Source: Massalongia carnosa (Eukaryota). From it: DNA of 64,000 nt. The position numbers and the translations under genes were made by a program. Shown here piece after piece: positions 1 to 35,735 of the stretch. Below the pieces are notes generated by a model. The model was not told the DNA's origin, ran no database searches, and saw only the letters and a list, made by a program, of their open reading frames with translations. The stretch covers positions 1,364,001 to 1,428,000 of the forward strand of contig OZ287070.1 of assembly GCA_965645245.1 (NCBI GenBank). The letters are read 5' to 3'. Every line of letters starts with the position of its first letter. The first letter of the stretch is position 1.

Positions 1-1461
1 GACCATTATACCAAATTTCTGAGCCGTAGTCCGAAATAGGAATAATGCATGACATATAGAGCTGTCTGCATGCGGTCGGTTTCAGACCCCATTCGGATTT
101 CATCAAATTCTGAATTGCAAAAAACGATCGATTCGCAGAAGAGATCCGCGTTTCGACGTGTTTTTTGAAATTTAGTTTTCGGTCTAACCAGACGCCCAAC
201 CATTTGACTACATTTTTCGGTTCTAGTACTGTCCCGTTTGGTAATTCCAATGTGTCTTTCGATACATTTCTTGTCTTTTCGAAGTGAATCAGCTCGGATT
301 TATCGTCATCAAATTTGACATTATTCGATGCGGCCCAATCAAAGGCCGTTTTGACTATGATTTCGATTTCTTTGCAATTCTGTTTTGCAGTTTTATTTTC
401 GACATATATTGCAACATCGTCAATAAAACTGGAAGAATGTGCATTGAATTTCATTCGTATTTTCGGAAACAAGTGACGAATGTAAATCAGAAATAGAATA
501 GGCGAGATTGGTGAGCCTTGTGGAATTCCTGATTCGACATAATATGTTTTGCTTAAATTTTCATCAAATATCAAATTGATCGATCGCTTTGTCATGAAAT
601 GCTTGACCCATTGAATTATTATGCGAGATAATTTCAGCTTTTTCATAACATTTAGCAGTTGATTAATCGAGACAAAGTCAAATGCGCCTTTGACATCGAG
701 TAATAAACATGATAAGACGTTTTTATTTCTATTTGCAATTTCAATATCATGAACAACGTTCATTACTGCGTCAATTGCAGAATGATTTTTGCGTCCGCCC
801 ATCTGTTCGATATCGAGTAAATTCGAATTTTCGCCGAAGTAGGCTAGTCGATTTGCAACGATTTTCTCAGCAATTTTACCAAGACAATTTAATAATATGA
901 TAATTCGATATGATTTTGGAAACGAATAGTCCGATTTATTAGGTTTTTTCAGAACTGCACCGAGTCCTGTCCGCCAGCATAACGGGTGATAACCGATTCG
1001 AATGAATTTCGAATAAATCATGAAAAACACGTTTTTCAACGATTGAAACGATTTTTGAACAATTGTAAAATTGATTGCATCAGGTCCACATGCTTTCTTC
1101 GGATTAAATAAACTAATCGCATTTTTCAACTCGTTTTCGGTCAAATCTGGCCAATTATCATCATTTACGCTGTCTTGATTTGATAAATCTTCCTCATTAT
1201 CGTCAATAAATGGGTTTTTTGTATACATTGCTGACACAAATGCATCGCATTTGTCATCAAACTGAACATTTAGCTTGTTTTCATGTAAAATCGGCGGTAT
1301 TTTTTCGAATATTCGCGGTTTAGTGTATTTATACGCGGTAAATACATCTTTATTTGCTGCATTTTCAAGAAAAGTAAACCATGTTTGTTGTTTTGCTTTT
1401 CGAATTGCATGAAAATACTCGATTCGACTATGTTTAAACGTCCGATGACTAAAATCGGACG
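1..1461 (-). mobile_element. 5'-truncated Tad1-like LINE (ORF2 RT region); 3' end lies outside the window
   Basis: Near-identical to 3968-5428; stops abruptly at ...aaaatcggacg. Confidence 0.9.
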
Positions 1462-2215
1462 TAGATTTTCTGATCAAATTGCATTTTGATTCTTCGAATT
1501 CCACCAGCTATGATGTGTATTGAAATCTCCACATATGACAAATTGATCAGTTGATATAGGTTAATATTTTATTAAAATCTTTTATTATTTTATTTATTCA
1601 TTAAGTGTATTCAACTTAAGGTTATGACACTAAACTATTTTAAGATATGTTTTTATTTTACAAATAAATCAACCCTTTATAACCCAACTATGTATCGTCA
1701 ATATTGCCCCGTTTTTACTCCGTGTTAGTAACAACCTTTAGTAATCGAAATATCAATTTTACAATTTTTTTTTGTAAAGCTCGTGAATATTCCAGCGTAA
1801 ATCATTTCTAATTTTACTGTTCGATCTCTCCCCAATCTCCCGTTTCGATATTTTGGTCATCGAGCTGACCTAGCATCCATTTTCTAGACGCGATTTTGTT
1901 ATCAATAAAAAATTTAATCAAAATATTATTTCCGATCCTAGTATTAAACGACATTTTTAAAGTAATTGTGGTATCGATATTTTGTTTCATGTTTAGGATT
2001 TCATTGGAACAATGTATGCAATTCATCAATAAGTGTTCTGGCGTTTGACGTTCGTTGCAGCGCCCTGTGCGTTTTGACGAGTTATAGTCTTTCAATCGGT
2101 GCAGATATGATCGAAAATAACCGTGTCCGAATTCATATGCATAATAGTCGCAAATATCAATTTTCGAACAATTATTCGACAGATAATAAAAACTCGATTT
2201 GCCCGGCAGCATTTC
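1462..2215 (-). mobile_element. Degenerate LINE pieces: endonuclease fragment (1462-1579) and a 3'-end fragment with poly(A) tail (copy H, ~1580-2215)
   Basis: Similar to 18769-18885 and 14445-15086; ORF 1814-2212 is a mutated ORF2 C-terminus. Confidence 0.85.
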
Positions 2216-2454
2216 TTTTTTTTTTTTTTTTTTTTATTCATTAAGTGTATTCAACCTAAGGTTATGACACTAAACTATTTTAGGATATGTTTCTATATTA
2301 CAAATAAATCAACCCTTTATAACCCATCTATGTATTGTCAATTTTTCCCCATTTTTACTCCGTGTTAGTAACAACCTATAGTAATCGAAGAATATCGATT
2401 TTAAAATTTGTCTTTGTAAGTTCGTGAATGTTTCAGCATAAATCGTTTCTGATT

Positions 2455-5400
2455 TTACTGTTCGATCTCTCCCCAACCTCCAGTTTCGAAAATCTCGTCA
2501 TCAAGCTGACCTAGTATCCATTTTCTAGTCGCGATTTTGTTATTGACAATGAATTTAATCAAAATGTCATTTCCGATTTTTGTATTAAACAACATATTCA
2601 AGTTGATCGTAGTATCGATGGTTTGTTTCATGTTTTGAATTTCATCGAAATAGTGAATGCAATTCAATAACAAGTGTTCTGGCGTTTGTCGTTGATTGCA
2701 TCGATTTGAGCATTTTGACGAATTATAATCTTTCAATCGATGTAAATATGATCGAAAATAGCCGTGTCCGAATTTTAATTGCATAATAGTAGCAAATATC
2801 AATTTGGAACAGTTGTTTGATAAATAATAAATCTCGATATGCCAGGTTTCATTTCGAATTTCTCGTAGTATTTGCCTTTTGATTTGCATTGTTGCCATTG
2901 ATTCGTCCATGTGGTTAGCATATTTTGATTTATTTGATCTTTTATATAATCAAATGTTATAGCCGAGGACTCGACTAGGATTTGATTATGGCCCGTCTTT
3001 GCTATTTTGTCTGCAATTTCGTTTTCGGTAATATTCGAATGACTCGGAACCCATTGCAAAATCACCTGATAATTGCTTTCAAATAAGCGTTTTGCGAGCT
3101 TTCGAATTTGTCTTGCGAAAATATGATTTTTCAAGTTCTGAATTTCGTTTATCGCGTTTATACTATCAGAAAAAATCCAAATCGTTTTTTCCAAGTTCGA
3201 TAAAATATTAGTATTAGACAATTTATAGACCCATTTCATTGCTTGTAAAATTGCATGCAGTTCAGCATTTTTAATGCTTGACTGTTTGCTTAATTTCCAG
3301 CTTTTCGAAATCGTATGATACTTGATCAGACAATCTTTTTCGATAAATCGATCAAAATTATTGATAATACTACTCCAATTCCTCATAATTGGCGCAAATG
3401 TGACTGCAGACGTTGCAAATTCGATTTTCGATCCATCTGTATAAAGTAAAACTCGGGATTTATCGGAGTTCATTGATTTAATTTTGGATAAGGTCGAATA
3501 ATAACTTGATTTAGCAGATTCCTTTGTATTTTCGATTTGAAATTTGATTTTGCAAGGCGGTTTCCAAGGTTTAATAAAATGATTTGATTGTTCAAATTCA
3601 TCAGTTTTGTGAACTATATCGGAAACGGAATGAAGAACGCGAATAAGCTGACTAGGATGTCGTTTATTTGTTTGTTTTTCGTCTTCGTTCCATTCGGCAT
3701 ATTTGTTGTTCCATAAACTTGTGTCAAAACCGATATTTTCGAATTTTATCGAATATGTGTTTGGAATTCTTTGACAAATAGGGTTATTTTCGGCAATCTT
3801 CAATAATCGAATTGCGTATTTTTGATTTTTCATTAATAATCGAAGTTTAACTGGTAAAACATGTGATTCAATTTCCATCGCCTGAATAGGTGTGGTTTTG
3901 AAAGTTCCTAAAATCTTTCGAATCATTTGATTTTGTAGGTTCTGAAATAGTTTTTCATATTTCTTTTGACCATTATACCAAATTTCTGAGCCGTAGTCCG
4001 AAATAGGAATAATGCATGACATATAGAGCTGTCTGCATGCGGTCGGTTTCAGACCCCATTCGGATTTCATCAAATTCTGAATTGCAAAAAACGATCGATT
4101 CGCAGAAGAGATCCGCGTTTCGACGTGTTTTTTGAAATTTAGTTTTCGGTCTAACCAGACGCCCAACCATTTGACTACATTTTTCGGTTCTAGTACTGTC
4201 CCGTTTGGTAATTCCAATGTGTCTTTCGATACATTTCTTGTCTTTTCGAAGTGAATCAGCTCGGATTTATCGTCATCAAATTTGACATTATTCGATGCGG
4301 CCCAATCAAAGGCCGTTTTGACTATGATTTCGATTTCTTTGCAATTCTGTTTTGCAGTTTTATTTTCGACATATATTGCAACATCGTCAATAAAACTGGG
4401 AGAATGTGCATTGAATTTCATTCGTATTTTCGGAAACAAGTGACGAATGTAAAGCAGAAATAGAATAGGCGAGATTGGTGAGCCTTGTGGAATTCCTGAT
4501 TCGACATAATATGTTTTGCTTAAATTTTCATCAAATATCAAATTGATCGATCGCTTTGTCATGAAATGCTTGACCCATTGAATTATTATGCGAGATAATT
4601 TCAGCTTTTTCATAACATTTAGCAGTTGATTAATCGAGACAAAGTCAAATGCGCCTTTGACATCGAGTAATAAACATGATAAGACGTTTTTATTTCTATT
4701 TGCAATTTCAATATCATGAACAACGTTCATTACTGCGTCAATTGCAGAATGATTTTTGCGTCCGCCCATCTGTTCGATATCGAGTAAATTCGAATTTTCG
4801 CCGAAGTAGGCTAGTCGATTTGCAACGATTTTCTCAGCAATTTTACCAAGACAATTTAATAATGTGATAATTCGATATGATTTTGGAAACGAATAGTCCG
4901 ATTTATTAGGTTTTTTCAGAACTGCACCGAGTCCTGTCCGCCAGCATAACGGGTGATAACCGATTCGAATGAATTTCGAATAAATCATGAAAAACACGTT
5001 TTTCAACGATTGAAACGATTTTTGAACAATTGTAAAATTGATTGCATCAGGTCCACATGCTTTCTTCGGATTAAATAAACTAATCGCATTTTTCAACTCG
5101 TTTTCGGTCAAATCTGGCCAATTATCATCATTTACGCTGTCTTGATTTGATAAATCTTCCTCATTATCGTCAATAAATGGGTTTTTTGTATACATTGCTG
5201 ACACAAATGCATCGCATTTGTCATCAAACTGAACATTTAGCTTGTTTTCATGTAGAATCGGCGGTATTTTTTCGAATATGCGCGGTTTAGTATATTTATA
5301 CGCGGTAAACACGTCTTTATTCGCTGCATTTTCTAGAAAAGTCAACCAGGTTTGTTGTTTTGCTTTTCGAATTGCATGAAAATACTCGATTCGACTATGT

Positions 5401-6467
5401 TTAAACGTCCGATGACTAAAATCGGACGGATAATTCTTCCATTCTCGACGATGTCTGCACATGGTTTTTCGAAGTTCAGTTAAATCATGCGACCACCAAT
5501 TTTTCGATTTTGCACAAATTTTCGTTTTCGGAATAAACATTTCAGCCGCGTTTTTGATAATGTTTTGCAAATATATCGCTGATTCGTCGAATTGATGATT
5601 ATTTAATAAACTTTGAACTTGTGATTCGTAGATGGTTGAATTTTCGTCTAGATACTTCGCGAATTTATTCCAATCAGCTTTATTGCAATTGTATTTATTC
5701 GATAATGCGGTTGCATGTGACCTCAAGTTTTTGAAAGATGCGATTAGTTCAAATCGGATGACTTCATGATCTGAACCTGTGACTGCGTTTTCATCGATTG
5801 ACCAATTTGTAATTGCATTTTCGATTTTAGAATTTGCAAAAGTTAAATCAATAACAGATGAAGAACTTCCAGAATGGGCGTAGTATGTACATAAGTCAGG
5901 TGTGTTTATCAAGCTACACCTGTTTAATTTCAACCATTTGACAAGATTTTCTGATCGAATTGCTCGTTGAATTTTCGAATTCCACCAGTTATGATGTGCA
6001 TTGAAATCTCCACAGATGACGAATTGATCAGTTGATTTTGGTTGTAATTGGATTAAAAGTCGATCGATCGTGTATGTTTCTCGATCACTTTGACTTTTTT
6101 CGTAATAAATATTGAAAATCTGCACTTTTCGAACTTCATCAATTGTAATTTCAATAATTTGCATATCGGAATCGTCAATAAGATCCGTTCTAGGCGTGCA
6201 TTGCAGTTTGGAATTGCCATTTGTGACAAATATAGCTACTCTCGAGCGATAAGTCGCTATTTTTGGCATAATACATGTAAATGACGGATGTGATATTGTT
6301 TTTTGATCTCGTGTCCATGGTTCCTGAAACAAAACAATATCAATTTGATTTGATAAAGCATATTCCAAACACGATATCATTGCATTCGTTGACTTTGCAC
6401 AATTATGTTGAATAAATTTAACATTTTGTGTATTTTCGATGTTTGTCAACGAATGCTGTCCTGCCAT
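2455..6467 (-). pseudogene. LINE ORF2 (APE endonuclease, reverse transcriptase, RNase H, CCHC) with a 1-nt frameshift near 2830
   Basis: Motifs GDFNAHH, SDH, PQGSPISP, FIDD, YTDGS/AEL/SDS; C-terminus lies in a second frame (2455-2910) but is contiguous in copy E. Confidence 0.92.
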
Positions 6468-8125
6468 TACAAAGCGGCTAATTCGTCAGTCGATTTTCGA
6501 ACATTTAACGATATAACCATTTCACAATTTTCATCATTGGATTGATGATTCTTGTTGCAATTCGCGCATTTGACGACGGCGTGTGCACAAGCAATTTTTG
6601 ACTTGCATGTTGTGCATTCATGATTGCGTGTTTCATGGTTTTGCGCACATATGCTGCATTTCGCTTGACTTTTGCATTGATAATGCTTGTGTCCAAATTT
6701 TTGACAATTAATGCATTGTGTGTTTGGACGAACGGAGGTAAATATTTCCGTGTCACAATGTCGGCCCGCGATATTGACTCCTTTTAACGCGTTCAAGGCC
6801 ATATTTCGATCATTGAATGTCAAAACAACGGATGATTTGATCTTGTTATGACGATCACGTGCTAGCCATCTGGGAACATCGCATAATTGCATGTTCGAAT
6901 TGAACTTTTGAATTTCGTCTTGCAAATATTGCATGTTTTCATCAAATGTTGCAATATTTACACCGTGTGCGACGACTTTGAACCACGATTCGTCCTTTCG
7001 AACTGTTCGTGGGTCGAATAAATGCTCCCATATTGATTTATTGTTCAATAAATCTTCAGCAGTGTTATCAGGACTAGTAGTCAGAACGATGTTTTGACCC
7101 GTTTTGGACTTTTCGACCGTGTTAACAACGATAGTCAATTTCGCGTCTTTAAAAAGCGAATTGATTTGGTTTCGAAGCAACAGTGAATCGATATCGCCGA
7201 TTTGAGCTTTCGGTGTGATTATCAATCGTCGAGATTTGATCGCCTTGAAATCGTCAGTATTATCGAATTTGTTCGCATTCGAATTATTGTTGTTGTTCTT
7301 GTTTGTTTTTTTGGATCGAGGAACGGTAGTCCAATTTTCGGAATTGACAGTCGCTTTTCCGAGCATTTGGCTCCATGTTCTAGCTGTATCGTTGACCTGC
7401 GGCCCTGGGACTCCGGCGGTTTCGCTCCGAATTTCTGGGTTGACGTTTTGAGTCAAATTCGAATTTCCATTTGAATTTCCCTTCGATTTTGTCTGTATAG
7501 GATGCACCGATTGTCTCTTTGTTTCTGGAATTTGGCTAGTTTGTTCTAGCACCCTATTCAATTTCCAATCAATCATTTCTAACGTTGCTTTTGGCTTGAT
7601 CGATTTCTTTGCCAGTAGAGAATTGACGTGATCGATGACCATAGCCGTTTCGGGGTTTTGATCTATTACGAATGACTCTAATAATGCATTTTTTGCCGTA
7701 TTCAATAGTTGAATCGATTTTGATCGATTGATGACTTCTTGACTCTCAATCGAATGTTCGTCAAATGTTCGTCTTTTGTTGCGTTTAATTGGTGGACTCA
7801 GTCGAATATCAGAATTCAATGATGGCATGGGCAGATTGGTATTGAATTCACCAGATGGCGCGACAAAAGGTTTCGTTTTTGGGGTGGGTGTGGACGGTGC
7901 GGACGAAAATTCTCGCGTTTGGTCCATGGCCTCCGTGGATTCTACGGTTAGGGGGTTGCTCCCAATTATCGCTACCGAAGATGGCGTGGGGGAGTCGGTT
8001 CGGGGGGGGCACGGGGGAGTACTCGGGGGGACCCATAGATGTTGTGGAGGGGGGCCTGGGGGAGGAGTTGTTGGTATCAATCGATTTGGTCTATGACCTA
8101 TCGGGTTAAATCTTCGATTGAGCAT
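6467..8125 (-). CDS. LINE ORF1 (gag-like; Pro-rich N-terminus, C-terminal Cys/His knuckles), 552 aa
   Basis: CINCQKFGHKHYQC and further knuckles; stop overlaps ORF2 start (TAATG). Confidence 0.92.
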   Translation of the reverse strand: MLNRRFNPIGHRPNRLIPTTPPPGPPPQHLWVPPSTPPCPPRTDSPTPSSVAIIGSNPLTVESTEAMDQTREFSSAPSTPTPKTKPFVAPSGEFNTNLPMPSLNSDIRLSPPIKRNKRRTFDEHSIESQEVINRSKSIQLLNTAKNALLESFVIDQNPETAMVIDHVNSLLAKKSIKPKATLEMIDWKLNRVLEQTSQIPETKRQSVHPIQTKSKGNSNGNSNLTQNVNPEIRSETAGVPGPQVNDTARTWSQMLGKATVNSENWTTVPRSKKTNKNNNNNSNANKFDNTDDFKAIKSRRLIITPKAQIGDIDSLLLRNQINSLFKDAKLTIVVNTVEKSKTGQNIVLTTSPDNTAEDLLNNKSIWEHLFDPRTVRKDESWFKVVAHGVNIATFDENMQYLQDEIQKFNSNMQLCDVPRWLARDRHNKIKSSVVLTFNDRNMALNALKGVNIAGRHCDTEIFTSVRPNTQCINCQKFGHKHYQCKSQAKCSICAQNHETRNHECTTCKSKIACAHAVVKCANCNKNHQSNDENCEMVISLNVRKSTDELAAL

Positions 8126-11100
8126 AGTGTTTTTGCCTTTGCAATATCCCTTTTATCGCCACCAAATAATTTATTCTGACTTTCCCCGGACGTACTAGTC
8201 AGAATAGAATTTACACCTGTTTGTTTACTGGTCAAATGACTCTTTCTTTCCTATCCCTATTTATTTGACTATAACGCGTCAAATAAATCCTAATCGGGTT
8301 AAAATAGACCGTTCCTCGCTAAGGCAGTAAGTCTTATTTAACCCTTTACCAGACACTACAATAGGTGAAAATAATGAAAGTTTTTTTTTTGCTTTTTTCA
8401 ATAAAGATAAATTTTAATGCAATGTAAGACAATAGGAGACTTCCTATTCTGATTAATCTGAAACAGGACCTTTGGTATAATCCTATTCCAGACGTTTTTC
8501 CCCTTCTTTTCAGTGATCTGTTGACCGGCCGTTCAACGAAGATCTATAAAGCCGAAAATGGAATGTGCAAAAATTATACGTGAAATATGCTATGAAAATT
8601 TGTGCTTGCGGAAGTTCCCGTAACCTTAAATGAGGAATGAACTTTAGAAGACTCTGACGTCGCGACAGTTGTTGTACAGTCCCGCGAGAGTAGATAATTT
8701 TTGTAGATAATTTTTATAGTAATAATTGAAGGTCATGCGACAACAGAACAGAAGAAAACAAGAAAAAAGAGCGATTTTTGGTGAGGTTGTTGGTATTTGT
8801 TGTTTTTTCCAACTTCTAGAGCGCGCTTTATCACGTCGGTCGCGTGCGACCAGCAGAAAAACTCTGCTGGAGCTTTGCTAGAGCTCTCCTACACTCAATC
8901 TGTGAGCGTTTTAACTCTGGAGGAGCGCAAATGACTGAGAAATAGAGGCTCAATTGACTGTTAAAGTTATAGTGTATCAAAAGTTGCGGTACTTGTGTTT
9001 CTTGTTGTTCAGGCGTGGGATGTCAATGCAACTATTGTAGTGTCTGGTAAAGGGTTAAATAAGATTTACTGCCTAAGCGAGGAACGGTCTATTTTAACCC
9101 GATTAGGATTTATTTGACGAGTTATTGTCATATAAATAGGGATAGGAAAGCAAGAGTCGTTAGACCTGTAAATTGGTGTAAATTTCTATTCTGATTAGTA
9201 CGTCCGGGGAACATCAGAATAAATTATTTGGTGGTGATAAAAGGGATATTGAAAAGGCATATCGATTTATTTATTAAATCATGTTCAATCCGGTACTCCC
9301 TAGGACTCGACGAATTATATCGAGAGCCTCCCCGGGAACACCCCTGAGCACTCCTCAAAACCCTCCCCAAATGGAATCTCCGGGGCTCTCGTCAGTAGGA
9401 CTTATAGAAAAATCTCCTGTACTTGACGAGCCTATGGATCAATCACATGAATATTCGTCCTCCCCGACTACGCCGACCCCAAAAGCAACCAATTCCCATC
9501 TGGACAATTTACTACCAATCTACCCATGCCATCGTTAAATTCTAATATAGAATTAAGCCCGCCTATCAAACGTAACAAACGAAAAACATTCGACGAACGA
9601 GTAGAGGAAAGCCAAGAAGCAATCAATCGAGCACAATCGATTGGATTACTCAAAACGGCTAAAACCGCGTTATTGAAGTCATTTGTCTTAGATCAAAATC
9701 CAGAAACAGCAATAGTCATTGATAATGTCAATTCCTTATTGACAAAAAAATCAATTAATATAAAAACAACACTAGATATGATGAATTGGAAATTGGACAA
9801 GGTAATTGATCAGACTAGTAATCGAACCTCAGAAACAACGCGAAAATCGACTCGGGTTCAACAAGTCAATACGACTGAAAATCCAAATAAAGTCGTCAAC
9901 ACGAACGCACGAAAGGAAACCGCCGGGGTTACGAGTACAAAGGTCAATAACACGCCTCCATCCTGGAGTCAAATGCTTGGAAAAGCAACTGCGAATTCCG
10001 AAAATTGGACCACTGTTTCCAGATCGAAAAATTCGAGTCAAACCTCGAACAAATTCGACAAAACCTCGAACAAATTCGACAAAACCGACGAATTAAATGC
10101 AATCAAACTCAGACGACTGATAATTACACCAAAAAGTCAAATCGGCGATATCGACTCATTGAAACTTCGAGATCAAATCAACGCGCAATTCAGCAACGCG
10201 AAGTTAGATATCGGAATCAACACGGTCGAAAAATCGGAAACCGGTCAGAATATCGTTCTCACTACTAGTTCGAAAAACACTGCTGCAGAATTGTTGGAAA
10301 ACAAGTCTATATGGGAACATATGTTCGATGCACAAAGAATTCGAAAAGACGAATCCTGGTTTAAAGTGATCGCACATGGAGTAAATATTGCAACGTTTGA
10401 TCAAAATATGCAATATTTGCAAAATGAAATCCAGAAATTCAACCTTAACATGGAATTATGCGAATTGCCCAGATGGCTAGCGCGAGACCGCGAAAATAAA
10501 GTCAATTCTTCGGTCGTTTTGACTTTTAACGATCGAAATCAGGCCTTAAACGCGTTTTTTTTTATTATTTATTCATTGAGTGTATTCAACCTAAGGTTAT
10601 GACACTCAACTATTTTAAGATATATTTCTATAATACAAATAAATGAACCCTTTATAACCCATCTATGAATCTTCAATTTTTCCCCGTTTTTACTCCGTGT
10701 TAGTAACAACCTATAGTAATCGAATTTTCGATTTTACAATTTGTCTTTGTAAAGTTCGTAAGTGTTTCAGGATAAATCAATTCTGATTTTACTGTTCGAT
10801 CTCTCCCCAACCTCCCGTTTCGAAAATTTCGTCTTCTAGCTGACCTAGTATCCATTTTCTAGTAGCGATATTGTTTTTGGCAATAAACTTTATCAAAATG
10901 TCATTTCCAATTTTGGTATTGAATAAAATGTTCAAATTGATTGTAGTATCGATACTTTGTTTCATTATTTGAATTTCTTCAAAATAGTGATTGCAGTTCA
11001 ACAATAGATGTTCTTGCGTTTGACTTTCGTTGCATCTATTCGTGCATTTTGACGAATTGTAATCTTTCAATCGATATAGATATGAACGAAAATAACCGTG

Positions 11101-23480: not shown

Positions 23481-25233
23481 CTAAGAATGATAAAATAGAG
23501 TTGACATCTCCTTCGTGAAGTCTCTATCCCAGTTTTCGTTCATCTCACTGGTGCGTTTTACGGCCCAAGACTATTGATGAATTCTACGATTGGGGTGAAC
23601 GACGTCCCTTTCGCCCAGGTCAAACCCAGTTTACTCCTTAAGCATATATCAAGGGCGAGTCTAGCCGTAGCCCATGCGCCGGCGAACCGACGGGGTCTCG
23701 TTACGAGCGAGATAGACATTCCCTGCTCTATATACACCGACATGCGCATACTATCCTCTCGGGCTATGCAGACGGTCTCCGTACGGTGGCCGCCATTGCA
23801 TACCACGCCTCACGGGTTTTTTACGCCCACTTCGCGTTATTCATAAAGGTCTCCCGTTTATGAACCGACCATGTCTCGCAAGGATTTCGACAGCTATGCT
23901 TCTGACCAGGCAGTATAGTATCGATTTTCCGTCCCTACTAACCAAAACAAGTCGAGGACAACTCGGAGTGGTGCTCGTTTGAAATTCGTCTATTAGCTCA
24001 GGGCCTAGACTGTTATCAATTAACGGGTTCCTCGTATATTGCCCTCTTCTTGTCCCAAGGGTGTCCTATTTGATGACTAGGTTGCCTCCACCATCCCCGG
24101 TACGACTCCGGTTCGGGCCGTGTTGCTCACGGTAGCCATCAATCGGATGGTTTTCATAACCCAAATCCCTTGTATCGTGTAGGGTGTGACCCTACACTAT
24201 GTGTCTATATGTTTTATTTCTTTCAGCCGGAGGGCTCCGTGTTGTAGACGAAGGAGACCCGTGTGATAGACATAGCTGACCCGTGTCGTACGTCTTTAGC
24301 TCTCAGCCGATTACTGCATGAAAGGACTTGAACCTTTAAGAGTATGACCGAACGTTGTTAACGAGATCTATGAAAATCTTATTAACGAGGTCTTCGAGAA
24401 CAATATTAACGATGTTCCGCTGAACTCTTTTCATTCGATTTGTGATCCATCGAGGTCTACCCGTGTCAAATCCACACCATGCCCGTGTCAAAATACATTA
24501 TTTTCAGCTGATGACTGCTAGAAAGGACTTGAACCTCTAAAAATATGTACTCCGATATTAACGGGGTGCAGATCTGTCTTAACGAGCCCCCGCAGAACCC
24601 CCTTCACAGGGACGTGTTATTGATTTGTGACTGTGTTTTTTGTGACTGTATGTTTGTGACTGTGTGATTTGTGAGTGTGTGCTTTGTACAACGTGTGATT
24701 GATGACTATGTGTTTTGTGACTTTGTTTTCCTGGATTTTATTTAACAGGCCGGGCCTATTAAATGGGATATTGTTATTCTGCTCCGAGATAGAGTTTTCT
24801 TGAGGTGACAGCATTCGCCCCGGTGCCTTTACGCGTTCTGTTGATCCCAGCTGATGACTGCATAGGGAGACTTGAACTCTCAGGAGCTAGAACGCGTGTC
24901 GACAGTGCCCGGGTGGGGGATGATGCGGCTCCTTTGGTCCACATCTTCTTCCAGCTGATGACTGCATGAAGGGACTTGAACCCTTAGAAGCATGGTGCAG
25001 GGACGCGCGCATTCTACCCCCCGGCGGTTGGCCTTCGTATCCTCTTCCGTACGTACGTCTGCGACGCGTGTGAACGCGTTAAATTAGCATTGTTTTGATG
25101 CGAAGAGATAGGAGCAAATCTATGTTTGACGGTCGCCCCACGGTGAGGCCTTTGGCGTCTCCGTGGTGAGTACCGATGGTAACTTGTTCATTTAACAATC
25201 ATGAATTGTAATGATACTGTCACGCGAATGATC
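23481..25233 (-). ncRNA. Putative retrocopied structured non-coding RNA of unknown origin
   Basis: Not homologous to the LINE, no ORF over 90 aa, many hairpins, four conserved 35-nt modules; lies inside the TSD of insertion A. Confidence 0.55.
24304..24986. repeat. Four dispersed 35-nt modules, consensus CAGCTGATGACTGCATGAAGGGACTTGAACCCTTA (24304, 24505, 24848, 24952)
   Basis: Direct sequence comparison; minus strand reads GGTTCAAGTCC (T-loop/B-box). Confidence 0.9.
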
Positions 25234-25960
25234 CCTTAAACGCGTTAAAAGGCGTAAATATCGCGGGAAAACACTGTGACACGGAAATATTTACTTCCGT
25301 TCGTCCGAATATACAATTTATTAATTGTCAAAAATTCGGACACAAGCATTATCAGTGTCGAAACAAATCAAAATGCAATATTTGTGCACAAAATCATGAA
25401 ACACGTAATCATGAATGCATAACATGCAAATCGAAAACTGCGTGTGCACACGTTGTTGTAAAATGTGCAAACTGCAATAAAAATCATCAATCAAATGATG
25501 AACATTGTGAAATGTTTACTGCATTGAATCCACGAAAATCGGCTGACGAATTATCCGCCTTATAATGGCAGGACAGCATTCGTTGGTAAATATAGAAAAT
25601 ACTCACAATGTCAAATTTATTCAACACAACTGTGGAAGGTCAACGAATGCAATGACTTCGTGTTTGGAATATGCTTTATCAAATCAAATTGATATTGTTT
25701 TATTTCAGGAACCATGGACACGAGATCAAAAAACAATATCACATCCGTCATTTACATGCATTTTGCCGAAAATAGCGACTTATCGCTCGAGAGTAGCTAT
25801 ATTTGTCACAAAATGCAATCCCAAACTGCAATGCACGCCTAGAACGGATCTTATTGACGATTCCGATATGCAAATTATTGAAATTACAATTGATGAAGTT
25901 CGCAAAGTGCAGATTTTCAATATTTATAACGAAAAAAGTCAAAATGATCGAGAAATATAC

Positions 25961-28705
25961 GGTTATCACCCGTTATGCTGGCGGACAGGACTCGGTGCAG
26001 TTCTGAAAAAACCTAATAAATCGGACTATTCGTTTCCAAAATCATATCGAATTATCACATTATTAAATTGTCTTGGTAAAATTGCTGAGAAAATCGTTGC
26101 AAATCGACTAGCCTACTTCGGCGAAAATTCGAATTTACTCGATATCGAACAGATGGGCGGACGCAAAAATCATTCTGCAATTGACGCAGTAATGAACGTT
26201 GTTCATGATATTGAAATTGCAAATAGAAATAAAAACGTCTTATCATGTTTATTACTCGATGTCAAAGGCGCATTTGACTTTGTCTCGATTAATCAACTGC
26301 TAAATGTTATGAAAAAGCTGAAATTATCTCGCATAATAATTCAATGGGTCAAGCATTTCATGACAAAGCGATCGATCAATTTGATATTTGATGAAAATTT
26401 AAGCAAAACATATTATGTCGAATCAGGAATTCCACAAGGCTCACCAATCTCGCCTATTCTATTTCTGATTTACATTCGTCACTTGTTTCCGAAAATACGA
26501 ATGAAATTCAATGCACATTCTCCCAGTTTTATTGACGATGTTGCAATATATGTCGAAAATAAAACTGCAAAACAGAATTGCAAAGAAATCGAAATCATAG
26601 TCAAAACGGCCTTTGATTGGGCCGCATCGAATAATGTCAAATTTGATGACGATAAATCCGAGCTGATTCACTTCGAAAAGACAAGAAATGTATCGAAAGA
26701 CACATTGGAATTACCAAACGGGACAGTACTAGAACCGAAAAATGTAGTCAAATGGTTGGGCGTCTGGTTAGACCGAAAACTAAATTTCAAAAAACACGTC
26801 GAAACGCGGATCTCTTCTGCGAATCGATCGTTTTTTGCAATTCAGAATTTGATGAAATCCGAATGGGGTCTGAAACCGACCGCATGCAGACAGCTCTATA
26901 TGTCATGCATTATTCCTATTTCGGACTACGGCTCAGAAATTTGGTATAATGGTCAAAAGAAATATGAAAAACTATTTCAGAACCTACAAAATCAAATGAT
27001 TCGAAAGATTTTAGGAACTTTCAAAACCACACCTATTCAGGCGATGGAAATTGAATCACATGTTTTACCAGTTAAACTTCGATTATTAATGAAAAATCAA
27101 AAATACGCAATTCGATTATTGAAGATTGCCGAAAATAACCCTATTTGTCAAAGAATTCCAAACACATATTCGATAAAATTCGAAAATATCGGTTTTGACA
27201 CAAGTTTATGGAACAACAAATATGCCGAATGGAACGAAGACGAAAAACAAACAAATAAACGACATCCTAGTCAGCTTATTCGCGTTCTTCATTCCGTTTC
27301 CGATATAGTTCACAAAACTGATGAATTTGAACAATCAAATCATTTTATTAAACCTTGGAAATCGCCTTGCAAAATCAAATTTCAAATCGAAAATACAAAG
27401 GAATCTGCTAAATCAAGTTATTATTCGACCTTATCCAAAATTAAATCAATGAACTCCGATAAATCCCGAGTTTTACTTTATACAGATGGATCGAAAATCG
27501 AATTTGCAACGTCTGCAGTCACATTTGCGCCAGTTATAAGGAACTGGAGTAATATTATCAATAATTTTAATCGATTTATCGAAAAAGATTGTCTGATCAA
27601 GTATCATACGATTTCGAAAAGCTGGAAATTAAGCAAAAAGTCAAGCATTAAAAATGCTGAACTGCATGCGATTTTACAAGCAATGAAATGGGTCTATAAA
27701 TTGTCGAATACTAATATTTTATCGAACTTAGAAAAAACGATTTGGATTTTTTCTGATAGTATAAACGCGATAAACGAAATTCAGAACTTGACAAATCATA
27801 TTTTCGCCAGACAAATTCGAAAGCTCGCAAAAATCTTATTTGAAAGCAATTTTCAGGTGATTTTGCAATGGGTTCCGAGTCATTCAAATATTACCGAAAA
27901 CGAAATTGCAGACAAAATAGCAAAGACGGGCCATAATCAAATCCTAGTCGAGTCCTCGGCGATAACATTTGATTATGTAAAAGATCAAATAAATCAAAAT
28001 ATGCTAACCACATGGACGAATCAATGGCAACAATGCAAATCAAAAGGCAAATACTACGAGAAATTCGAAATGAAACCTGGCATATCGAGATTTTATTATT
28101 TATCAAACAACTTTTCCAAATTGATATTTGCTACTATTATGCAATTAAAATTCGGACACGGCTATTTTCGATCTTATTTACAGCGATTGAAAGATTATAA
28201 TTCGTCAAAATGCACAAATCGATGCAATCAACGACAAACGCCAGAACACTTGTTATTGAATTGCATTCACTATTTCGATGAAATTCAAAACATGAAACAA
28301 AATATCGATACTACCATCAACTTGAATATGTTGTTTAATACAAAAATCGGAAATGACATTTTGATTAAATTCATTGTCAATAACAAAATCGCGACAAGAA
28401 AATGGATACTAGGTCAGCTTGATGACGAGATTTTCGAAACTGGAGGTTGGGGAGAGATCGAACAGTAAAATCATAAACGATTTATGCTGAAACATTCACG
28501 AACTTACAAAGACAAATTTTAAAATCGATATTCTTCGATTACTATAGGTTGTTACTAACACGGAGTAAAAATGGGGAAAAATTGACAATACATAGATGGG
28601 TTATAAAGGGTTGATTTATTTGTAATATAGAAACATATCCTAAAATAGTTTAGTGTCATAACCTTAGGTTGAATACACTTAATGAATAAATAAAAAAAAA
28701 AAAAA
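25961..28705 (+). mobile_element. 5'-truncated LINE (copy E) inserted in D, fused in frame to D's ORF2 start
   Basis: Poly(A); TSD GATCGAGAAATATAC at 25946-25960 and 28706-28720. Confidence 0.93.
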
Positions 28706-29096
28706 GATCGAGAAATATACACGATCGATCGACTTTTAATCAAATATCAACCTACATCAACTAATCAATTCGTCAATTGTGGAGATTTCAATGCACATCG
28801 TAACTGGTGGAATTCAAAAATTCAACACGCATTTCGATCAGAAAATTTAGTCAAATGGTTGAAAATAAACAAATGTAGTTTGATAAACACACCTGATTTA
28901 TGCACATTCTACGCCCATTCTGGAAGTTCATCATCTGTTATTGATTTAACATTTGCAAATTCCAAAATCGAAAATGCAATTACAAACTGGGCAATCGATG
29001 GAAACGCAGTCACAGGTTCAGATCATGAAGTCATCCGATTTGAACTAATCGCATCTTTCAAGAATTTGACGTCACATGCAACCGCATTATCGAATA

Positions 29097-30919
29097 ACGT
29101 AATTTACCCTCATTCGGGTCAGCCCCCCATTCGGGTCACCCCATTAAAATCTAGCGACCGAAAAGATTTCTATCCTGTTTATCTACTACCACCATATATT
29201 TATCTATTAATCGTAGATAAAATGTCCATTAATATGCCTACAATTGACTCTGCTACTAGATTACAGTTGGCTATCGAAGAATTAGCCAAAAATCCGGGCA
29301 TTTCGCAGCGGGAAATAGCGCGCCTTTACGGAGTTCCTCAGTCGACTTTACAGGCCCGGCTCAAAGGCAGGCGGGCCGCAAAACACTATCATCAAGCCGC
29401 CCAAAGGCTATTCGTCCACGAAGAACAGGCTCTGATTGATTGGATAGAGCGGATGACCTCATGGGGTTGGCCGCCTCGTACCCAACATTTGGAAGGCATG
29501 GCCAGAAGTCTCCTGAACGCCAAAGGGGACAAAAATCCGTTGGGTCGTCATTGGTATCAAAAGTTCCTGAAAAGGCATCCCGATTTCAAAATCAAATACA
29601 ATAGAAACCTCGATCAATCCAGAAAGGACGCTGGTAGTCCCAAAATTTTGCGTGATTGGTTCGAATTGTACACGACCACCTTGGTCAAATATGGGATTTC
29701 AGATGAAGATACTTACAACATGGATGAAAAAGGCTTTGCTATGGGCATCGCTGACAGTTCGAAGGTCATAATCAAAGGAACAACAATACCATTCAATGTG
29801 CATCCGGGAAATAGGGACTGGGTTTCTCTTATTGAGTGCATATTATCCCGCGGAACAGTTCTTCCGGCTATTATCATTTTCCAAGGTGCCCAAGTTCAAC
29901 CTGCATGGTATGATGCCATGGAGACGAAGGCAGATACCGTTCGGGTCAGTCCCAATGGTTGGGCGGATGCGGAGATAGTCCTTCATTGGTTGCAAACGGT
30001 GTTCAATAAGTATACAAAACCTGAACGAGGCATGTATATAGGATGCTAATTGTAGATGGCCATGAGAGTCACGTCTCCATTCCTTTTATGGAGTTTTGTA
30101 CCCAAGCGAAAATCATACCCCTTTGTTTGCCACCATATTCAACTCATTTATTGCAGCCCCTGGATGTCGGTGTTTTTGGCCCTTTATCTAAGGCCTTTAA
30201 ACAACTCGTTTCCAGCCAATCACGTTACGGGGCTGTGACTATTTCTAAGCTAGATTTTTTGCGCCTTATTCAGGTGGCTAGGAAACAGGCCATTACTACT
30301 ACTAACATCATAAGTGCATGGCGGGGGGCAGGCCTCATCCCATTTAATCCAGGGCATGTTCTAGGCGAGTTGCCTAGGCCTATCACACCTCCTATCTATC
30401 CAAACACCGTCACCGATGCCCCCCAAACGGAGCAGCGAATCCAGGAAGTCAGCGATGCCCTTAAAACCTGTATAACTCCATCTCTTCGCGCGCATGTTGA
30501 GTTGCTTAAAACAACTGCTTTGAATGCCGTCGCTGATAGGGTTATTCTAAGACACACCAATCAAGAACTGATTGATAAAAGGCTCAGGGACGTCAAAAAG
30601 CATCCAGAAAGGGGGGTGTTAAAGCGAGGGTGCTGACTGTGGGTGAAGGGCAGGCGATTGCGGAGGAAAAACAGAGGAAGGAAGAAGCATTGGCCAAACA
30701 AAAGGAACGGTACCATGCTTTAAATGGGAAAGTAAAGTTCGCAAAGGCCATATGGAAGGAAATGCAGATGGATAGTGGTGTTTTTAGTTAGTTTTGGGGA
30801 TGGTGGAAGCAATGTAATATTTTTCTTTGGTGTAGGGCGAAGGTTTTTTTTTTGGTGGGGTGACCCGATTGGGTGGCTGACCCGAATGGGGGGCTGACCC
30901 GAATGAGGGTAAATTACGT
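29097..30919 (+). mobile_element. Fot1/pogo-like DNA transposon (1.82 kb); transposase ~29222-30790 with frameshifts
   Basis: TIR ACGTAATTTACCCTCATTCGGGTCAGCCCCCCATTCGGGTCA, TA duplication; motifs YNMDEKGF, LIVDGH, QPLDVG. Confidence 0.95.
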
Positions 30920-31731
30920 TAAATATAATTGCAATAAAGCCGATTGGAATAAATTCGCGAAGTTTCTAGACGAAAATTCAATCAACTACGAATCAAAAGT
31001 TCAAAGTTTATTGAATAATTATCAATTCGACGAATCAGCGATACATTTGCAAAAAATTATCAAAAACGCGGCTGAAATGTTTATTCCGAAAACAAAAATA
31101 TGTGCAAAATCGAAAAATTGGTGGTCGCAAGATTTAACCGAACTTCGAAAAATCATGTGCAGGCATCGTCGAGAATGGTGAATTATCCGTCCGATTTTAG
31201 TCATCGGACGTTTAAACATAGTCGAATCGAGTATTTTCATGCAATTCGAAAAGGAAAACAACAAACCTGGTGGACTTTTCTAGAAAATGCAGCGAATAAA
31301 GACGTTTTTACCGCGTATAAATATACTAAACCGCGCATATTCGAAAAAATCCCGCCAATTCTACATGAAAATAAGCTTAATGTTCAGTTTGATGTCAAAT
31401 GCGATGCGTTTGTGTCAGCAATGTACAATAAAAACCCATTTATAGACGATAATGTGGAAGATTTACCAAATCAAGACAGCGAAAATGATGATAACTGGCC
31501 AGATTTGACAGAAAACGAGCTGCAAAATGCGATTAATTTATTTAATCCAAAGAAAGCATGTGGACCTGATGCAATCAATTTTACAATTGTTCAAAAATCG
31601 TTTCAATCGTTGAAAAACGTGTTTTTCATGATTTATTCGAAATTCATTCGAATCGGTTATCACCCGTTATGCTGGCGGACAGGACTCGGTACAGTTCTGA
31701 AAAAACCTAATAAATCAGACTATTCGCTACC

Positions 31732-34700
31732 ATAATAGCCGGAAGAACTGTTCCGCGGGATAATATGCACTCAATAAGAGAAACCCAGTCCCTATTTCCC
31801 GGATGCACATTGAATGGTATTGTTGTTCCTTTGATTATGACCTTCGAACTGTCAGCGATGCCCATAGCAAAGCCTTTTTCATCCATGTTGTAAGTATCTT
31901 CATCTGAAATCCCATATTTGACCAAGGTGGTCGTGTACAATTCGAACCAATCACGCAAAATTTTGGGACTACCAGCGTCCTTTCTGGATTGATCGAGGTT
32001 TCTATTGTATTTGATTTTGAAATCGGGATGCCTTTTCAGGAACTTTTGATACCAATGACGACCCAACGGATTTTTGTCCCCTTTGGCGTTCAGGAGACTT
32101 CTGGCCATGCCTTCCAAATGTTGGGTACGAGGCGGCCAACCCCATGAGGTCATCCGCTCTATCCAATCAATCAGAGCCTGTTCTTCGTGGACGAATAGCC
32201 TTTGGGCGGCTTGATGATAGTGTTTTGCGGCCCGCCTGCCTTTGAGCCGGGCCTGTAAAGTCGACTGAGGAACTCCGTAAAGGCGCGCTATTTCCCGCTG
32301 CGAAATGCCCGGATTTTTGGCTAATTCTTCGATAGCCAACTGTAATCTAGTAGCAGAGTCAATTGTAGGCATATTAATGGACATTTTATCTACGATTAAT
32401 AGATAAATATATGGTGGTAGTAGATAAACAGGATAGAAATCTTTTCGGTCGCTAGATTTTAATGGGGTGACCCGAATGGGGGGCTGACCCGAATGAGGGT
32501 AAATTACGTTATTCGATAATGCGGTTGCATGTGACGTCAAATTCTTGAAAGATGCGATTAGTTCAAATCGGATGACTTCATGATCTGAACCTGTGACTGC
32601 GTTTCCATCGATTGCCCAGTTTGTAATTGCATTTTCGATTTTGGAATTTGCAAATGTTAAATCAATAACAGATGATGAACTTCCAGAATGGGCGTAGAAT
32701 GTGCATAAATCAGGTGTGTTTATCAAACTACATTTGTTTATTTTCAACCATTTGACTAAATTTTCTGATCGAATTGCGTGTTGAATTTTTGAATTCCACC
32801 AGTTATGATGTGCATTGAAATCTCCACAAATGACGAATTGATTAGTTGATGTAGGTTGATATTTGATTAAAAGTCGATCGATCGTGTATATTTCTCGATC
32901 ATTTTGACTTTTTTCGTTATAAATATTGAAAATCTGCAATTTGCGAACTTCATCAATTGTAATTTCAATAATTTGCATATCGGAATCGTCAATAAGATCC
33001 GTTCTAGGCGTGCATTGCAGTTTGGGATTGCATTTTGTGACAAATATAGCTACTCTCGAGCGATAAGTCGCTATTTTCGGCAAAATGCATGTAAATGACG
33101 GATGTGATATTGTTTTTTGATCTCGTGTCCATGGTTCCTGAAACAAAACAATATCAATTTGATTTGATAAAGCATATTCCAAACACGAAATCATTGCATT
33201 CGTTGACCTTCCACAGTTGTGTTGAATAAATTTGACATTGTGAGTATTTTCTATATTTGCCAACGAATGCTGTCCTGCCATTATAAGGCGGATAATTCGT
33301 CAGCCGATTTTCGTGGATTTAATGCAGTAAACATTTCACAATGTTCATCATTTGATTGATGATTTTTATTGCAGTTTGCACATTTCACAACAACGTGTGC
33401 ACACGCAGTTTTCGATTTGCATGTTATGCATTCATGATTACGTGTTTCATGATTTTGTGTACAAATATTGCATTTTGATTTGTTTCGACACTGATAATGC
33501 TTGTGTCCGAATTTTTGACAATTAATACATTGTGTATTCGGACGAACGGAAGTAAATATTTCCGTGTCACAGTGTTTTCCCGCGATATTTACGCCTTTTA
33601 ACGCGTTTAAGGCCTGATTTCGATCGTTAAAAGTCAAAACGACCGAAGAATTGACTTTATTTTCGCGCTCTCGCGCTAGCCATCTGGGCAAATCGCATAA
33701 TTCCATGTTAAGGTTGAATTTCTGGATTTCATTTTGCAAATATTGCATATTTTGATCAAACGTTGCAATATTTACTCCATGTGCGATCACTTTAAACCAG
33801 GATTCGTCTTTTCGAATTCTTTGTGCATCGAACATATGTTCCCATATAGACTTGTTTTCCAACAATTCTGCAGCAGTGTTTTTCGAACTAGTAGTGAGAA
33901 CGATATTCTGACCGGTTTCCGATTTTTCGACCGTGTTGATTCCGATATCTAACTTCGCGTTGCTGAATTGCGCGTTGATTTGATCTCGAAGTTTCAATGA
34001 GTCGATATCGCCGATTTGACTTTTTGGTGTAATTATCAGTCGTCTGAGTTTGATTGCATTTAATTCGTCGGTTTTGTCGAACTTGTTCGAGGTTTGACTC
34101 GAATTTTTCGATCTGGAAACAGTGGTCCAATTTTCGGAATTCGCAGTTGCTTTTCCAAGCATTTGACTCCAGGATGGAGGCGTGTTATTGACCTTTGTAC
34201 TCGTAACCCCGGCGGTTTCCTTTCGTGCGTTCGTGTTGACGACTTTATTTGGATTTTCAGTCGTATTGACTTGTTGAACCCGAGTCGATTTTCGCGTTGT
34301 TTCTGAGGGTCGATTACTAGTCTGATCAATTACCTTGTCTAATTTCCAATTCATCATATCTAGTGTTGTTTTTATATTAATTGATTTTTTTGTCAATAAG
34401 GAATTGACATTATCAATGACTATTGCTGTTTCTGGATTTTGATCTAAGACAAATGACTTCAATAACGCGGTTTTAGCCGTTTTGAGTAATCCAATCGATT
34501 GTGCTCGATTGATTGCTTCTTGGCTTTCCTCTACTCGTTCGTCGAATGTTTTTCGTTTGTTACGTTTGATAGGCGGGCTTAATTCTATATTAGAATTTAA
34601 CGATGGCATGGGTAGATTGGTAGTAAATTGTCCAGATGGGAATTGGTTGCTTTTGGGGTCGGCGTAGTCGGGGAGGACGAATATTCATGTGATTGATCCA

Positions 34701-35735
34701 TAGGCTCGTCAAGTACAGGAGATTTTTCTATAAGTCCTACTGACGAGAGCCCCGGAGATTCCATTTGGGGAGGGTTTTGAGGAGTGCTCAGGGGTGTTCC
34801 CGGGGAGGCTCTCGATATAATTCGTCGAGTCCTAGGGAGTACCGGATTGAACATGATTTAATAAATAAATCGATATGCCTTTTCAATATCCCTTTTATCA
34901 CCACCAAATAATTTATTCTGATGTTCCCCGGACGTACTAATCAGAATAGAAATTTACACCAATTTACAGGTCTAACGACTCTTGCTTTCCTATCCCTATT
35001 TATATGACAATAACTCGTCAAATAAATCCTAATCGGGTTAAAATAGACCGTTCCTCGCTTAGGCAGTAAATCTTATTTAACCCTTTACCAGACACTACAA
35101 TAGTTGAAAATAATGAAAGGTTTTTTTTTTGCTTTTTTGCGATAAAAATAGATCTAAGGCAAGGTAAGATAATAAGAGACTTCCTATTCTGATTGAAATA
35201 GGATCTTTGGTATAATCCTATTCCAGACGTTTTTCCCCTTCTTTTCATTGATCTGTTGACCGGCCGTTCAATGGAGATCGATAAAGCCTAAAATGGTATA
35301 TGCAGAAATTATACGTGAAATATACTGTGAAAATTTGTGCTTGCGGAAGTTCCCGTAACCTTAAATGAGAAATGAACTTCAAAAAAGTTGGTCGTCGCGA
35401 CAGTTGTTGTACAGTACCGCGACAGTAGATATTTTTTGTAGATAATTCTTGTAGTAATAATTGAGGGTAATGCGACAACAGAACAGAAGAAAGTGAGAAA
35501 AAAGAGCGATTTTTGGTGATATTGTTGGTATTTGTTGTTTTTATAACTTCTTGAGCGCGCTTTATCACGTCTGTCGCGTGCGACCAGCAGAAAATCTCTG
35601 CTGGAGCTTTGCTAGAGCTCTCCTACACTCAATCTGAGTCCGTTTTTGCTCTGGTGGAGCTCAAATGACTGAGAAAGAGATGTTCAATTGACTATGAAAG
35701 TTATAGAGTATCAAAAGTTGCGGTACTTGTGTTTC
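31732..35735 (-). mobile_element. LINE copy F (5'UTR, ORF1, endonuclease) ending in the 5' part of the same Fot1-like element (31732-32508); inverted duplicate of D
   Basis: Same Fot1 insertion site and same ORF1 frameshift as D. Confidence 0.9.
33281..34854 (-). pseudogene. LINE ORF1 with a 1-nt frameshift near 34640 (442 aa remain open downstream)
   Basis: Homologue reads TPKATKFPSG in one frame; here it is split between two ORFs. Confidence 0.8.

Follow-up and report, generated by a model that had tools for sequence, protein, structure and literature searches.

Why should a retrotransposon accumulate inside its own copies, and why should it stop abruptly at one point of a chromosome? The question is raised by a 64-kb stretch of contig OZ287070.1 of Massalongia carnosa (assembly GCA_965645245.1, positions 1,364,001 to 1,428,000; hereafter, the window), in which positions 1-35735 carry copies of long interspersed nuclear elements (LINEs) inserted into one another. 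A first-pass annotation, made from the letters alone, had suggested that such an array reflects centromere-type targeting. We lean towards a plainer answer, namely a real and ordinary nested pile of one LINE lineage, sitting in a larger gene-free compartment that is occupied by several transposon families. Self-nested LINE piles are a familiar kind of structure, and sequence alone cannot show a centromere.

The window contains no N, and we analysed it by self-comparison and by mapping it as a whole onto a reference element, E1 (reverse complement of positions 2216-9001, 6786 bp). We identified 17 LINE segments in positions 1-35735, which represent 11 copies or fragments (eight on the minus strand and three on the plus strand; Table 1) belonging to four subfamilies. 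The first-pass count of about eleven copies or fragments, from several subfamilies and in both orientations, thus holds, as does the nesting four layers deep that was written as D>A>B>C: in our designation, copy X is interrupted by Z, Z by W, and W by j (X>Z>W>j), with g additionally inserted in Z and n in X. Each of these five nested insertions (Z, W, g, j, and n) is flanked by a perfect target-site duplication (TSD) of 13-15 bp, carries its A-tail on the expected side, and is followed exactly by the resumption of the interrupted host element. At least eight successive insertions into older LINE copies have occurred. Besides the LINEs that had been listed, the array comprises a pogo element and an inverted LINE/pogo duplication, and its left end consists of four minus-strand pieces arranged head to tail (a, b, c, and d, the latter being E1).

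The four subfamilies, which are 86-92% alike over a shared stretch, are E1-type (a, d, g, j, and n), W-type (W, b, and c), Z, and X/Y. E1-type copies are 98.1-99.9% identical to E1, none of them is interrupted, and E1 itself is intact. After in silico excision of the inserts, the open reading frames (ORFs) of W, Z, and X proved to be broken (both ORF1 and ORF2 in W; ORF2 in two parts of 511 and 603 aa in Z). The youngest subfamily (E1-type, five copies) always occupies the topmost position in the nest. As the youngest lineage lies above the older ones, the pile is a record of successive bursts.

One part of the array is an inverted duplication. Copy Y and the adjoining 777-bp pogo part form an inverted copy of X (98.8-99.7% identical over the LINE), in which Z and n are missing; positions 28686-29874 match positions 32920-31732 in inverted orientation (99.2% identical), with a spacer of 1857 bp and a 5-bp overlap at the join. 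As Y lacks Z and n, the empty sites of both are preserved in it. X/Y would thus be a fold-back duplication older than the Z and n insertions, the alternative being an assembly chimera at that one join. Twin priming was rejected as the source of the inversion, since the arms overlap by more than 3 kb and neither has an A-tail. The pogo/Fot1-like element that interrupts X has inverted terminal repeats of ~42 bp, a TA duplication, and a transposase split by one frame change (316 and 203 aa); a contig of sequencing run X4 joins position 29094 to 30920 and thus represents a LINE copy without this element.

Repeat-induced point mutation (RIP) has left no sign in the LINEs, in which the transition/transversion ratio is ~1.5-1.9 and substitution directions are symmetric between copies. 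RIP is diagnosed at TpA/ApT >= 0.89 and (CpA+TpG)/(ApC+GpT) <= 1.03; in positions 1-36000, we obtained values of 0.41-0.87 and 0.99-1.51, respectively, and a composite index that is always negative (-0.12 to -1.02). The RIP signature of centromere regions of the Neurospora or Cladonia type is absent from the LINE part. RIP is ruled out as the cause of the low G+C content of this part (36.8% in positions 1-35735, against 47.1% in the remainder) by the negative index and the symmetric substitutions; as there is no RIP signature, low G+C is the LINE's own composition. The composite index is weakly positive (0.06-0.38) only in positions 36001-42000 and 50001-52000, where degenerate pogo-like remnants lie; these two stretches may be older transposon relics that underwent RIP, unlike the untouched LINE nest.

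E1 is a two-ORF LINE of ~6.8 kb, with an ORF1 of 552 aa (6467-8125, minus strand), an ORF2 of 1222 aa (2799-6467, minus strand), and an A-tail of 20 nt (2216-2235). According to Pfam, ORF2 contains Exo_endo_phos (residues 28-234), Exo_endo_phos_2 (residues 116-237), and RVT_1 (residues 520-771), that is, an apurinic/apyrimidinic (AP) endonuclease followed by a reverse transcriptase, as expected of an AP-endonuclease-type retrotransposon without long terminal repeats (LTRs). Downstream of RVT_1 lies RNase_H (residues 1005-1159, E = 2e-11), and an RNase H in this position is a mark of the Tad1 and I clades. No Pfam family matched ORF1 at E <= 0.01 and no PF13966 (zf-RVT) match was found in ORF2; the nearest ESM Atlas clusters of ORF1 are Ascomycota proteins, one of them auto-named 'Gag-like', which is a lead only. 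Because its ORF2 combines AP endonuclease, reverse transcriptase, and RNase H, the LINE is by domain content I/Tad1-like, and not L1-, Grem-, or Zepp-like, its nearest named proteins (Pleurotus and Fusarium) being only 25% identical. Membership of the L1 clade, which includes Grem-LINE1, was rejected on domain content, as ORF2 lacks zf-RVT and ORF1 lacks a Pfam zinc knuckle. E1 is an intact and probably active master copy.

Every LINE 3' end carries an A-tail, 5' truncation is variable (5' ends at element positions 1, 3574, 4040, 5617, 6147, and 6197), and terminal repeats are lacking. The LINE inserts by target-primed reverse transcription, of which A-tails, variable 5' truncation, and the 13-15 bp duplications are the marks, and the first nick is made after a T and before a purine. 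In all five verified targets, oriented by the inserted element, the first nick is T|purine (T|R, the bar marking the nick): CATTT|AACAG, TTGCT|AAATG, TCGGT|GCAGT, CTTTT|AACGC, and AAAAT|GATCG. Two of the five are TT(T)|AA-like and a third reads CT|AAA. The chance of observing T|R five times out of five among non-A steps is 0.0002, for a motif defined post hoc. Two coincidences of position are also seen: the nicks for g (in Z) and j (in W) fall between the same two nucleotides of the homologous site in their hosts, but on opposite strands, and n and c, whose hosts are X-type and W-type, have entry points 28 bp apart. The initial view that TSDs lack a consensus and that targeting is not sequence-specific therefore goes too far, although the contrary signal is no more than suggestive: we found no feature shared by the five targets beyond T|R, but T|R itself is constant, g and j hit the same host position, and there is weak clustering along the element.

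What lies beyond the array bears directly on why it stops. LINE sequence ends at position 35735, and tblastn searches with ORF1 and ORF2 (E <= 1e-3) returned nothing to the right of it, in agreement with the first-pass statement that the next 28 kb are free of LINEs. The border that was then called sharp is so for the LINE, but it divides transposon types, as the right 28 kb (35736-64000) are also made up of transposons only. One of these, Ty3 chromovirus 2, is on sequence grounds a very recent insertion. As the right half is also pure transposon, the border is a switch of transposon type inside a larger compartment. We detected no host gene in the 64 kb, and likewise no tRNA gene, Rfam family, telomere repeat, or satellite. 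Three other settings were rejected for the array: a telomeric or subtelomeric one (no TTAGGG run in the window with up to two mismatches, and copies in both orientations), targeting of ribosomal DNA or tRNA genes (such genes are absent from the window), and a satellite-based centromere (no long tandem arrays in the window, in which the largest tandem repeat measures 222 bp). By analogy with published work on related fungi, the transposon compartment may well be (peri)centromeric, for which we see roughly even chances.

An ordinary pile could have formed as follows. If the compartment tolerates insertions of all transposon classes, nesting would result from this tolerance. Being A/T-rich (37% G+C, compared with 47% in the adjoining DNA), the LINE body would supply up to 2.7x more TTTAA-like nick sites: TTTAA density is 4.70 per kb in the left part (1-35735) against 1.77 in the right part. 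T|R density is equal on both sides (ratio 1.04). The neighbouring Ty3 elements, because they are very young, would not yet have been available as targets. LINE-specific recognition of centromeric chromatin would then be unnecessary.

We evaluated the one-sidedness of the insertions with a model in which eight LINE insertions have their targets in the window and the LINE part grows from 9.4 kb, P being the probability that all eight fall in the LINE part. Under uniform insertion, P = 0.001 with the right part as it is now and P = 0.012 without the two young Ty3 elements; when insertion is weighted by TTTAA density, the corresponding values are 0.03 and 0.13. The LINE-into-LINE excess within the window is thus nominal. 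Because the window was picked for its striking look, the in-window P values overstate the case and should be read as upper bounds on the evidence.

Several points weigh against an ordinary pile. If the preference is for T|R only, the uniform figures hold (0.001, or 0.012 without the two Ty3 elements), and the element may truly favour LINE DNA, or the chromatin on it, to some extent. Since the right part has no genes either, insertion tolerance does not set the LINE part apart from it. Moreover, all seven LINE-in-LINE positions fall within element coordinates 2210-4388 (clustering P = 0.009-0.022, allowing for each host's extent; mean nearest-neighbour distance, P = 0.014; two pairs within 30 bp, P = 0.012); for the five TSD-verified events alone, clustering P = 0.06-0.09, and we regard position clustering within the LINE body as suggestive. 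The size of the ORF2 family is compatible with about one nest per chromosome. Finally, no TSD is present within the window for the junctions of a, c, and d, where insertion history is only partly resolved.

Family size deserves attention here. Proteins derived from ORF2 (88-98% identity) group into clusters of 204 and 126; the 31 members that were listed occupy 15 distinct contigs of 1.27-3.77 Mb, perhaps from more than one assembly. The LINE family is thus abundant and present on many chromosomes, which fits either one nest per chromosome or dispersal.

Table 1. Features of the window. Coordinates are window positions; element positions refer to E1;. denotes no strand.
Feature	Position	Strand	Description
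LINE copy a	1-1461	-	E1-type; 5'-truncated at element position 3574; continues past left window end; 99.2% identical to E1 over 1461 bp; RVT_1
LINE fragment b, remnant of host copy V	1462-1579	-	W-type, element ~2944-3058; 94.8% identical to W, against 85% to E1, Z, and X
LINE copy c	1580-2215	-	W-type 3' end, element 6147-6782; degenerate A-tail abuts b; 95.6% identical to W 3' end
LINE copy d (E1)	2216-9001	-	Full length, 6786 bp; intact ORF1 and ORF2
27 bp between E1 5' end and truncated X 5' end	9002-9028	.	No window match of >= 11 bp
LINE copy X, outermost host	9029-31736	+	Pieces 9029-10556, 25234-25960, 28706-29096, 30921-31736; element 635-4122; split by Z, n, and pogo
LINE copy Z	10557-25233	-	Own pieces 10557-12970, 14155-14444, 21795-23480, plus non-homologous 5' module 23481-25233
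Z TSD	10544-10556 and 25234-25246		CCTTAAACGCGTT
LINE copy g in Z	12971-14139	+	E1-type; 5'-truncated at element position 5617; 99.9% identical to E1
g TSD	12956-12970 and 14140-14154		AACAGCTGATTAATC
LINE copy W in Z	14445-21794	-	Full length plus 36 extra 5' bases (21759-21794); split by j; TSD TTTTCAAAACTGC
LINE copy j in W, fourth layer	16852-17433	-	E1-type 3' end, ~580 bp; 98.1% identical to E1
j TSD	16839-16851 and 17434-17446		TTTCATGACATTT
LINE copy n in X	25961-28705	+	E1-type; 5'-truncated at element position 4040; 99.0% identical to E1
n TSD	25946-25960 and 28706-28720		GATCGAGAAATATAC
pogo/Fot1-like DNA transposon in X	29097-30919	+	1823 bp; HTH_psq, HTH_Tnp_Tc5, DDE_1
Inverted copy of first 777 bp of pogo element	31732-32508	-	Joins X at 31732-31736, 5-bp overlap
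LINE copy Y	32509-35735	-	5' part, element 1-3307, 5' terminus intact; ORF1 of 442 aa intact; 5' end is right border of array
pogo-like DDE_1 remnants	38378-38944, 40042-40500		Pfam
Ty3 chromovirus 1	44004-50675		LTRs 98.0% identical
Tc1 remnant	53298-54169		Pfam
Ty3 chromovirus 2	54547-61290		317-bp LTRs 100% identical; 5-bp duplication GATAA; gag (474 aa) and pol (1460 aa) open
Tc1/mariner ORF	61337-62647		Intact, 436 aa; directly beside chromovirus 2
Third chromovirus	63448-64000		End only

One nest per chromosome is what would be expected if the LINE were centrophilic, that is, if it preferred CENP-A- or kinetochore-associated chromatin, with position 35735 being the edge of a chromatin domain. 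We consider this possible but doubtful. Young nested copies of a single lineage are what a 2026 Darwin Tree of Life centromere atlas preprint predicts, in the part available to us; all eight in-window insertions lie in the LINE part (uniform P = 0.001-0.012), although motif weighting lifts P to 0.03-0.13 and the window's selection for its appearance inflates such figures. The 64 kb are gene-free and hold young transposons of several classes; however, the right part, although free of LINEs, is likewise without genes and has itself taken up very young Ty3 and Tc1 insertions, so that the border is not the edge of a repeat domain. The family's presence on at least 15 Mb-scale contigs, in counts compatible with about one nest per contig, fits a centrophilic element. 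So do published cases, as far as the accessible portions of these sources go: LINE-based centromeres in green algae (PMC8226300), LINE pericentromeres in Mucor, and large transposon regions of a lichen fungus interpreted as centromeres. In the ascomycetes described in such accounts, on the other hand, putative centromeres are mainly LTR-rich or RIP-mutated, and are not LINE arrays.

A bolder version of the centrophilic explanation, which we regard as unlikely, assigns the centrophilic role to an RNase H-bearing Tad1/I-like LINE that its host, a lichen-associated ascomycete, spares from RIP. On each chromosome, the nest would then mark kinetochore-forming chromatin flanked by a chromovirus-rich pericentromere. 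Phased centromeric nucleosomes, or a tether that links the integration complex to a kinetochore protein, would account for the suspected hot stretches at element positions ~2900-3060 and 4080-4390. If true, no LINE-built centromere core would have been described before in a filamentous ascomycete other than the powdery mildews, and this one would have arisen independently of the L1-clade examples from Mucor and green algae.

The self-nesting might instead be explained by the element's own sequence, if its endonuclease or its priming favoured a few sites in LINE DNA, so that it homed to existing copies irrespective of their location and independently of chromatin. The shared host position of g and j on opposite strands, the 28 bp between n and c, and the confinement of all seven positions to 2210-4388 point in this direction, and the X inversion junction (element position 4122) lies in the same stretch. 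Yet the five verified events alone give clustering P values of 0.06-0.09, the five targets share only T|R, and W's site in Z lacks a TTTAA-like motif. With ~30 TTTAA-like sites per element (4.7 per kb), one shared site among a few events is not rare; moreover, very few insertions are available, and we settled on the statistics post hoc. We therefore hold sequence-directed self-targeting to be improbable.

Other sequencing data offer a view of part of the locus. Positions 30001-40000 are partly present in seven of the nine sequencing runs listed; the share of sampled words is 0.30 in a lichen metagenome run and 0.20-0.60 in the runs of three organisms, against 0.09 in run X2 and 0.00 in runs X8 and X9, which were left aside. 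Contigs of four runs aligned to positions 20001-40000 are all short (269 joints and 530 loose ends; their summed depths are not copy numbers), and none of them spans a long junction. Two contigs reach the right border, with 14-15 bases inside the LINE against the 31 required for bridging. An exact scan of metagenome contigs for the conserved LINE 3' terminus gave 0 matches. An assembly artefact or plain segmental duplication, in which mis-joined repeats or duplicated blocks mimic nesting, is nevertheless very improbable: the nearly identical inverted pair X/Y with its 5-bp overlap could be a fold-back or a chimeric join, and the short contigs leave long junctions and the border unbridged, but mis-assembly does not yield five perfect TSDs with correctly placed A-tails and exact host continuity, nested copies differ in subfamily from their hosts, and Y keeps the empty site of n.

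Several features of individual copies were also recorded. The 5' module of Z (23481-25233, 1753 bp) is unrelated to the ORF1 or 5' untranslated region (UTR) of the other subfamilies, non-coding, and 48% G+C; no ORF1 homology was found in it, and of ORF1 itself no more than the final 25 aa are left (23405-23479). It contains four copies of a ~43-bp motif (near 24304, 24504, 24847, and 24951, spaced roughly 100-450 bp) and a 15-bp tandem repeat (24624-24726), and one contig of sequencing run X6 diverges exactly at 23481. As the module lies within Z's TSD, it arrived together with Z. It may represent either a 5' UTR that was exchanged for one with promoter-like monomers or a chimeric extension of the 5' end. 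Similarly, the 36 extra bases of W (21759-21794) extend beyond the shared LINE 5' terminus yet lie inside W's TSD; they and positions 9002-9028 are unlike each other, and neither matches the rest of the window. As a chance result of the pogo insertion, two long ORFs (28859-30049 and 31707-33281) connect the LINE endonuclease in frame with the transposase of pogo (HTH_psq, Tc5, and DDE_1), and such fusions would mislead gene callers.

In the right half, contigs of four runs skip ~1036 bp at 36355-37390 (position 36354 is joined to 37391, with 5 other letters between), a segment with high summed depth, probably a short repeated element whose insertion is polymorphic. A repeat unit of ~172 bp occurs at 38011-38182, 40870-41042, 41270-41442, and 51012-51176 (copies 89-100% alike), and contigs of four runs skip its first copy (38005 joined to 38182); a short non-autonomous element and a solo terminal repeat are both conceivable. 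A 17-bp tandem repeat is located at 42147-42263 (6.9 copies, 97% matches).

Relatives of the encoded proteins indicate in which host these events took place. Named relatives of the Tc1, Ty3, and LINE proteins of the window are mostly fungal, chiefly Pezizomycotina: Tc1 relatives reach at most 57% identity and their named matches are all Pezizomycotina; Ty3 relatives (43-53% identity) are mostly ascomycetes, together with a frog, a smut fungus, and a green alga; and LINE ORF2 relatives are 22-25% identical (Pleurotus and Fusarium, and a lancelet at low coverage). The Ascomycota look-alikes of ORF1 and the share held by the lichen metagenome run point the same way. The host is thus a filamentous ascomycete, probably lichen-associated.

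Centromeres made of self-nesting transposon clusters have now been described in several lineages, which raises the question of how a LINE, lacking both integrase and chromodomain, could locate centromeric chromatin. If the family studied here forms one cluster per chromosome, it would provide an independent, non-L1 example in an ascomycete. If it is dispersed, the array is a well-preserved record of successive LINE bursts, mainly useful for repeat annotation. In addition, an intact, probably active master copy and clean junctions make insertion-site choice directly amenable to study.

How, then, does the array compare with known systems? According to the available part of the 2026 centromere atlas preprint, a single centrophilic family should leave young insertions nested within one another in a gene-depleted region, one such cluster to a chromosome. 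Centromeres of the transposon-cluster type are reported there for 34 of 49 fungi, and the lichen fungus Ramalina siliquosa, with LTR-rich regions of 200-500 kb, is among them. The window resembles these, with its four-layer nest, E1-type copies that are 98-99.9% alike, and no host gene in 64 kb. The atlas examples given there are LTR-based, however, LINEs being only a minor component of satellite arrays (1.3%), whereas the nest of the window is LINE-based. In another ascomycete lichen fungus, Cladonia rangiformis, the available part of the published account describes a sharply compartmentalized genome with clustered and nested retrotransposons, in which large transposon regions, one of 100-500 kb per chromosome plus smaller islands, are read as centromeres and are heavily RIP-mutated. 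Unlike these regions, the LINE nest is free of RIP and has intact, probably active elements. The putative centromeres of Erysiphe necator are described as populated by younger elements, chiefly of the LTR type, with non-LTR elements being fewer. LINE-dominated centromeres of wheat powdery mildew were cited in the first-pass annotation.

Among LINEs proper, the accessible part of PMC8226300 describes Zepp/ZeppL of Chlorella, Coccomyxa, and Chlamydomonas as self-inserting elements of the L1 clade by phylogeny, whose clusters, one per chromosome, are thought to constitute centromeres, and whose arrays are mostly 3' ends in tandem; a 2025 preprint deals, by its title, with CENH3 association. The LINE of the window likewise inserts into its own copies and forms a localized cluster. 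Unlike Zepp/ZeppL, it has an RNase H, no L1-type C-terminal zinc domain, and fungal relatives, and its array comprises full-length copies in both orientations instead of tandem 3' ends; domain content and fungal relatives argue against membership of Zepp/ZeppL. Grem-LINE1 of Mucor is, in the portion of the bioRxiv version available, a fungal LINE of the LINE1 clade that occupies gene-free stretches of 15-75 kb surrounding centromeres, with zinc fingers PF00098 and PF16588 in ORF1 and AP, RVT, and zf-RVT (PF13966) domains in ORF2; in this portion the word 'nested' occurs 0 times and nesting goes unmentioned. Our element is also fungal and also resides in a gene-free region, but its ORF1 has no Pfam match, its ORF2 carries RNase H in place of zf-RVT, and its host genome is ascomycete-like, against Mucorales for Grem-LINE1. 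With its two ORFs, an ORF2 that combines AP endonuclease, reverse transcriptase, and RNase H, an A-tail, and variable duplications, it resembles Tad1/I-type fungal LINEs in organization. On domain content it thus falls outside the Grem-LINE1 family and probably outside Zepp/ZeppL, yet may work like both.

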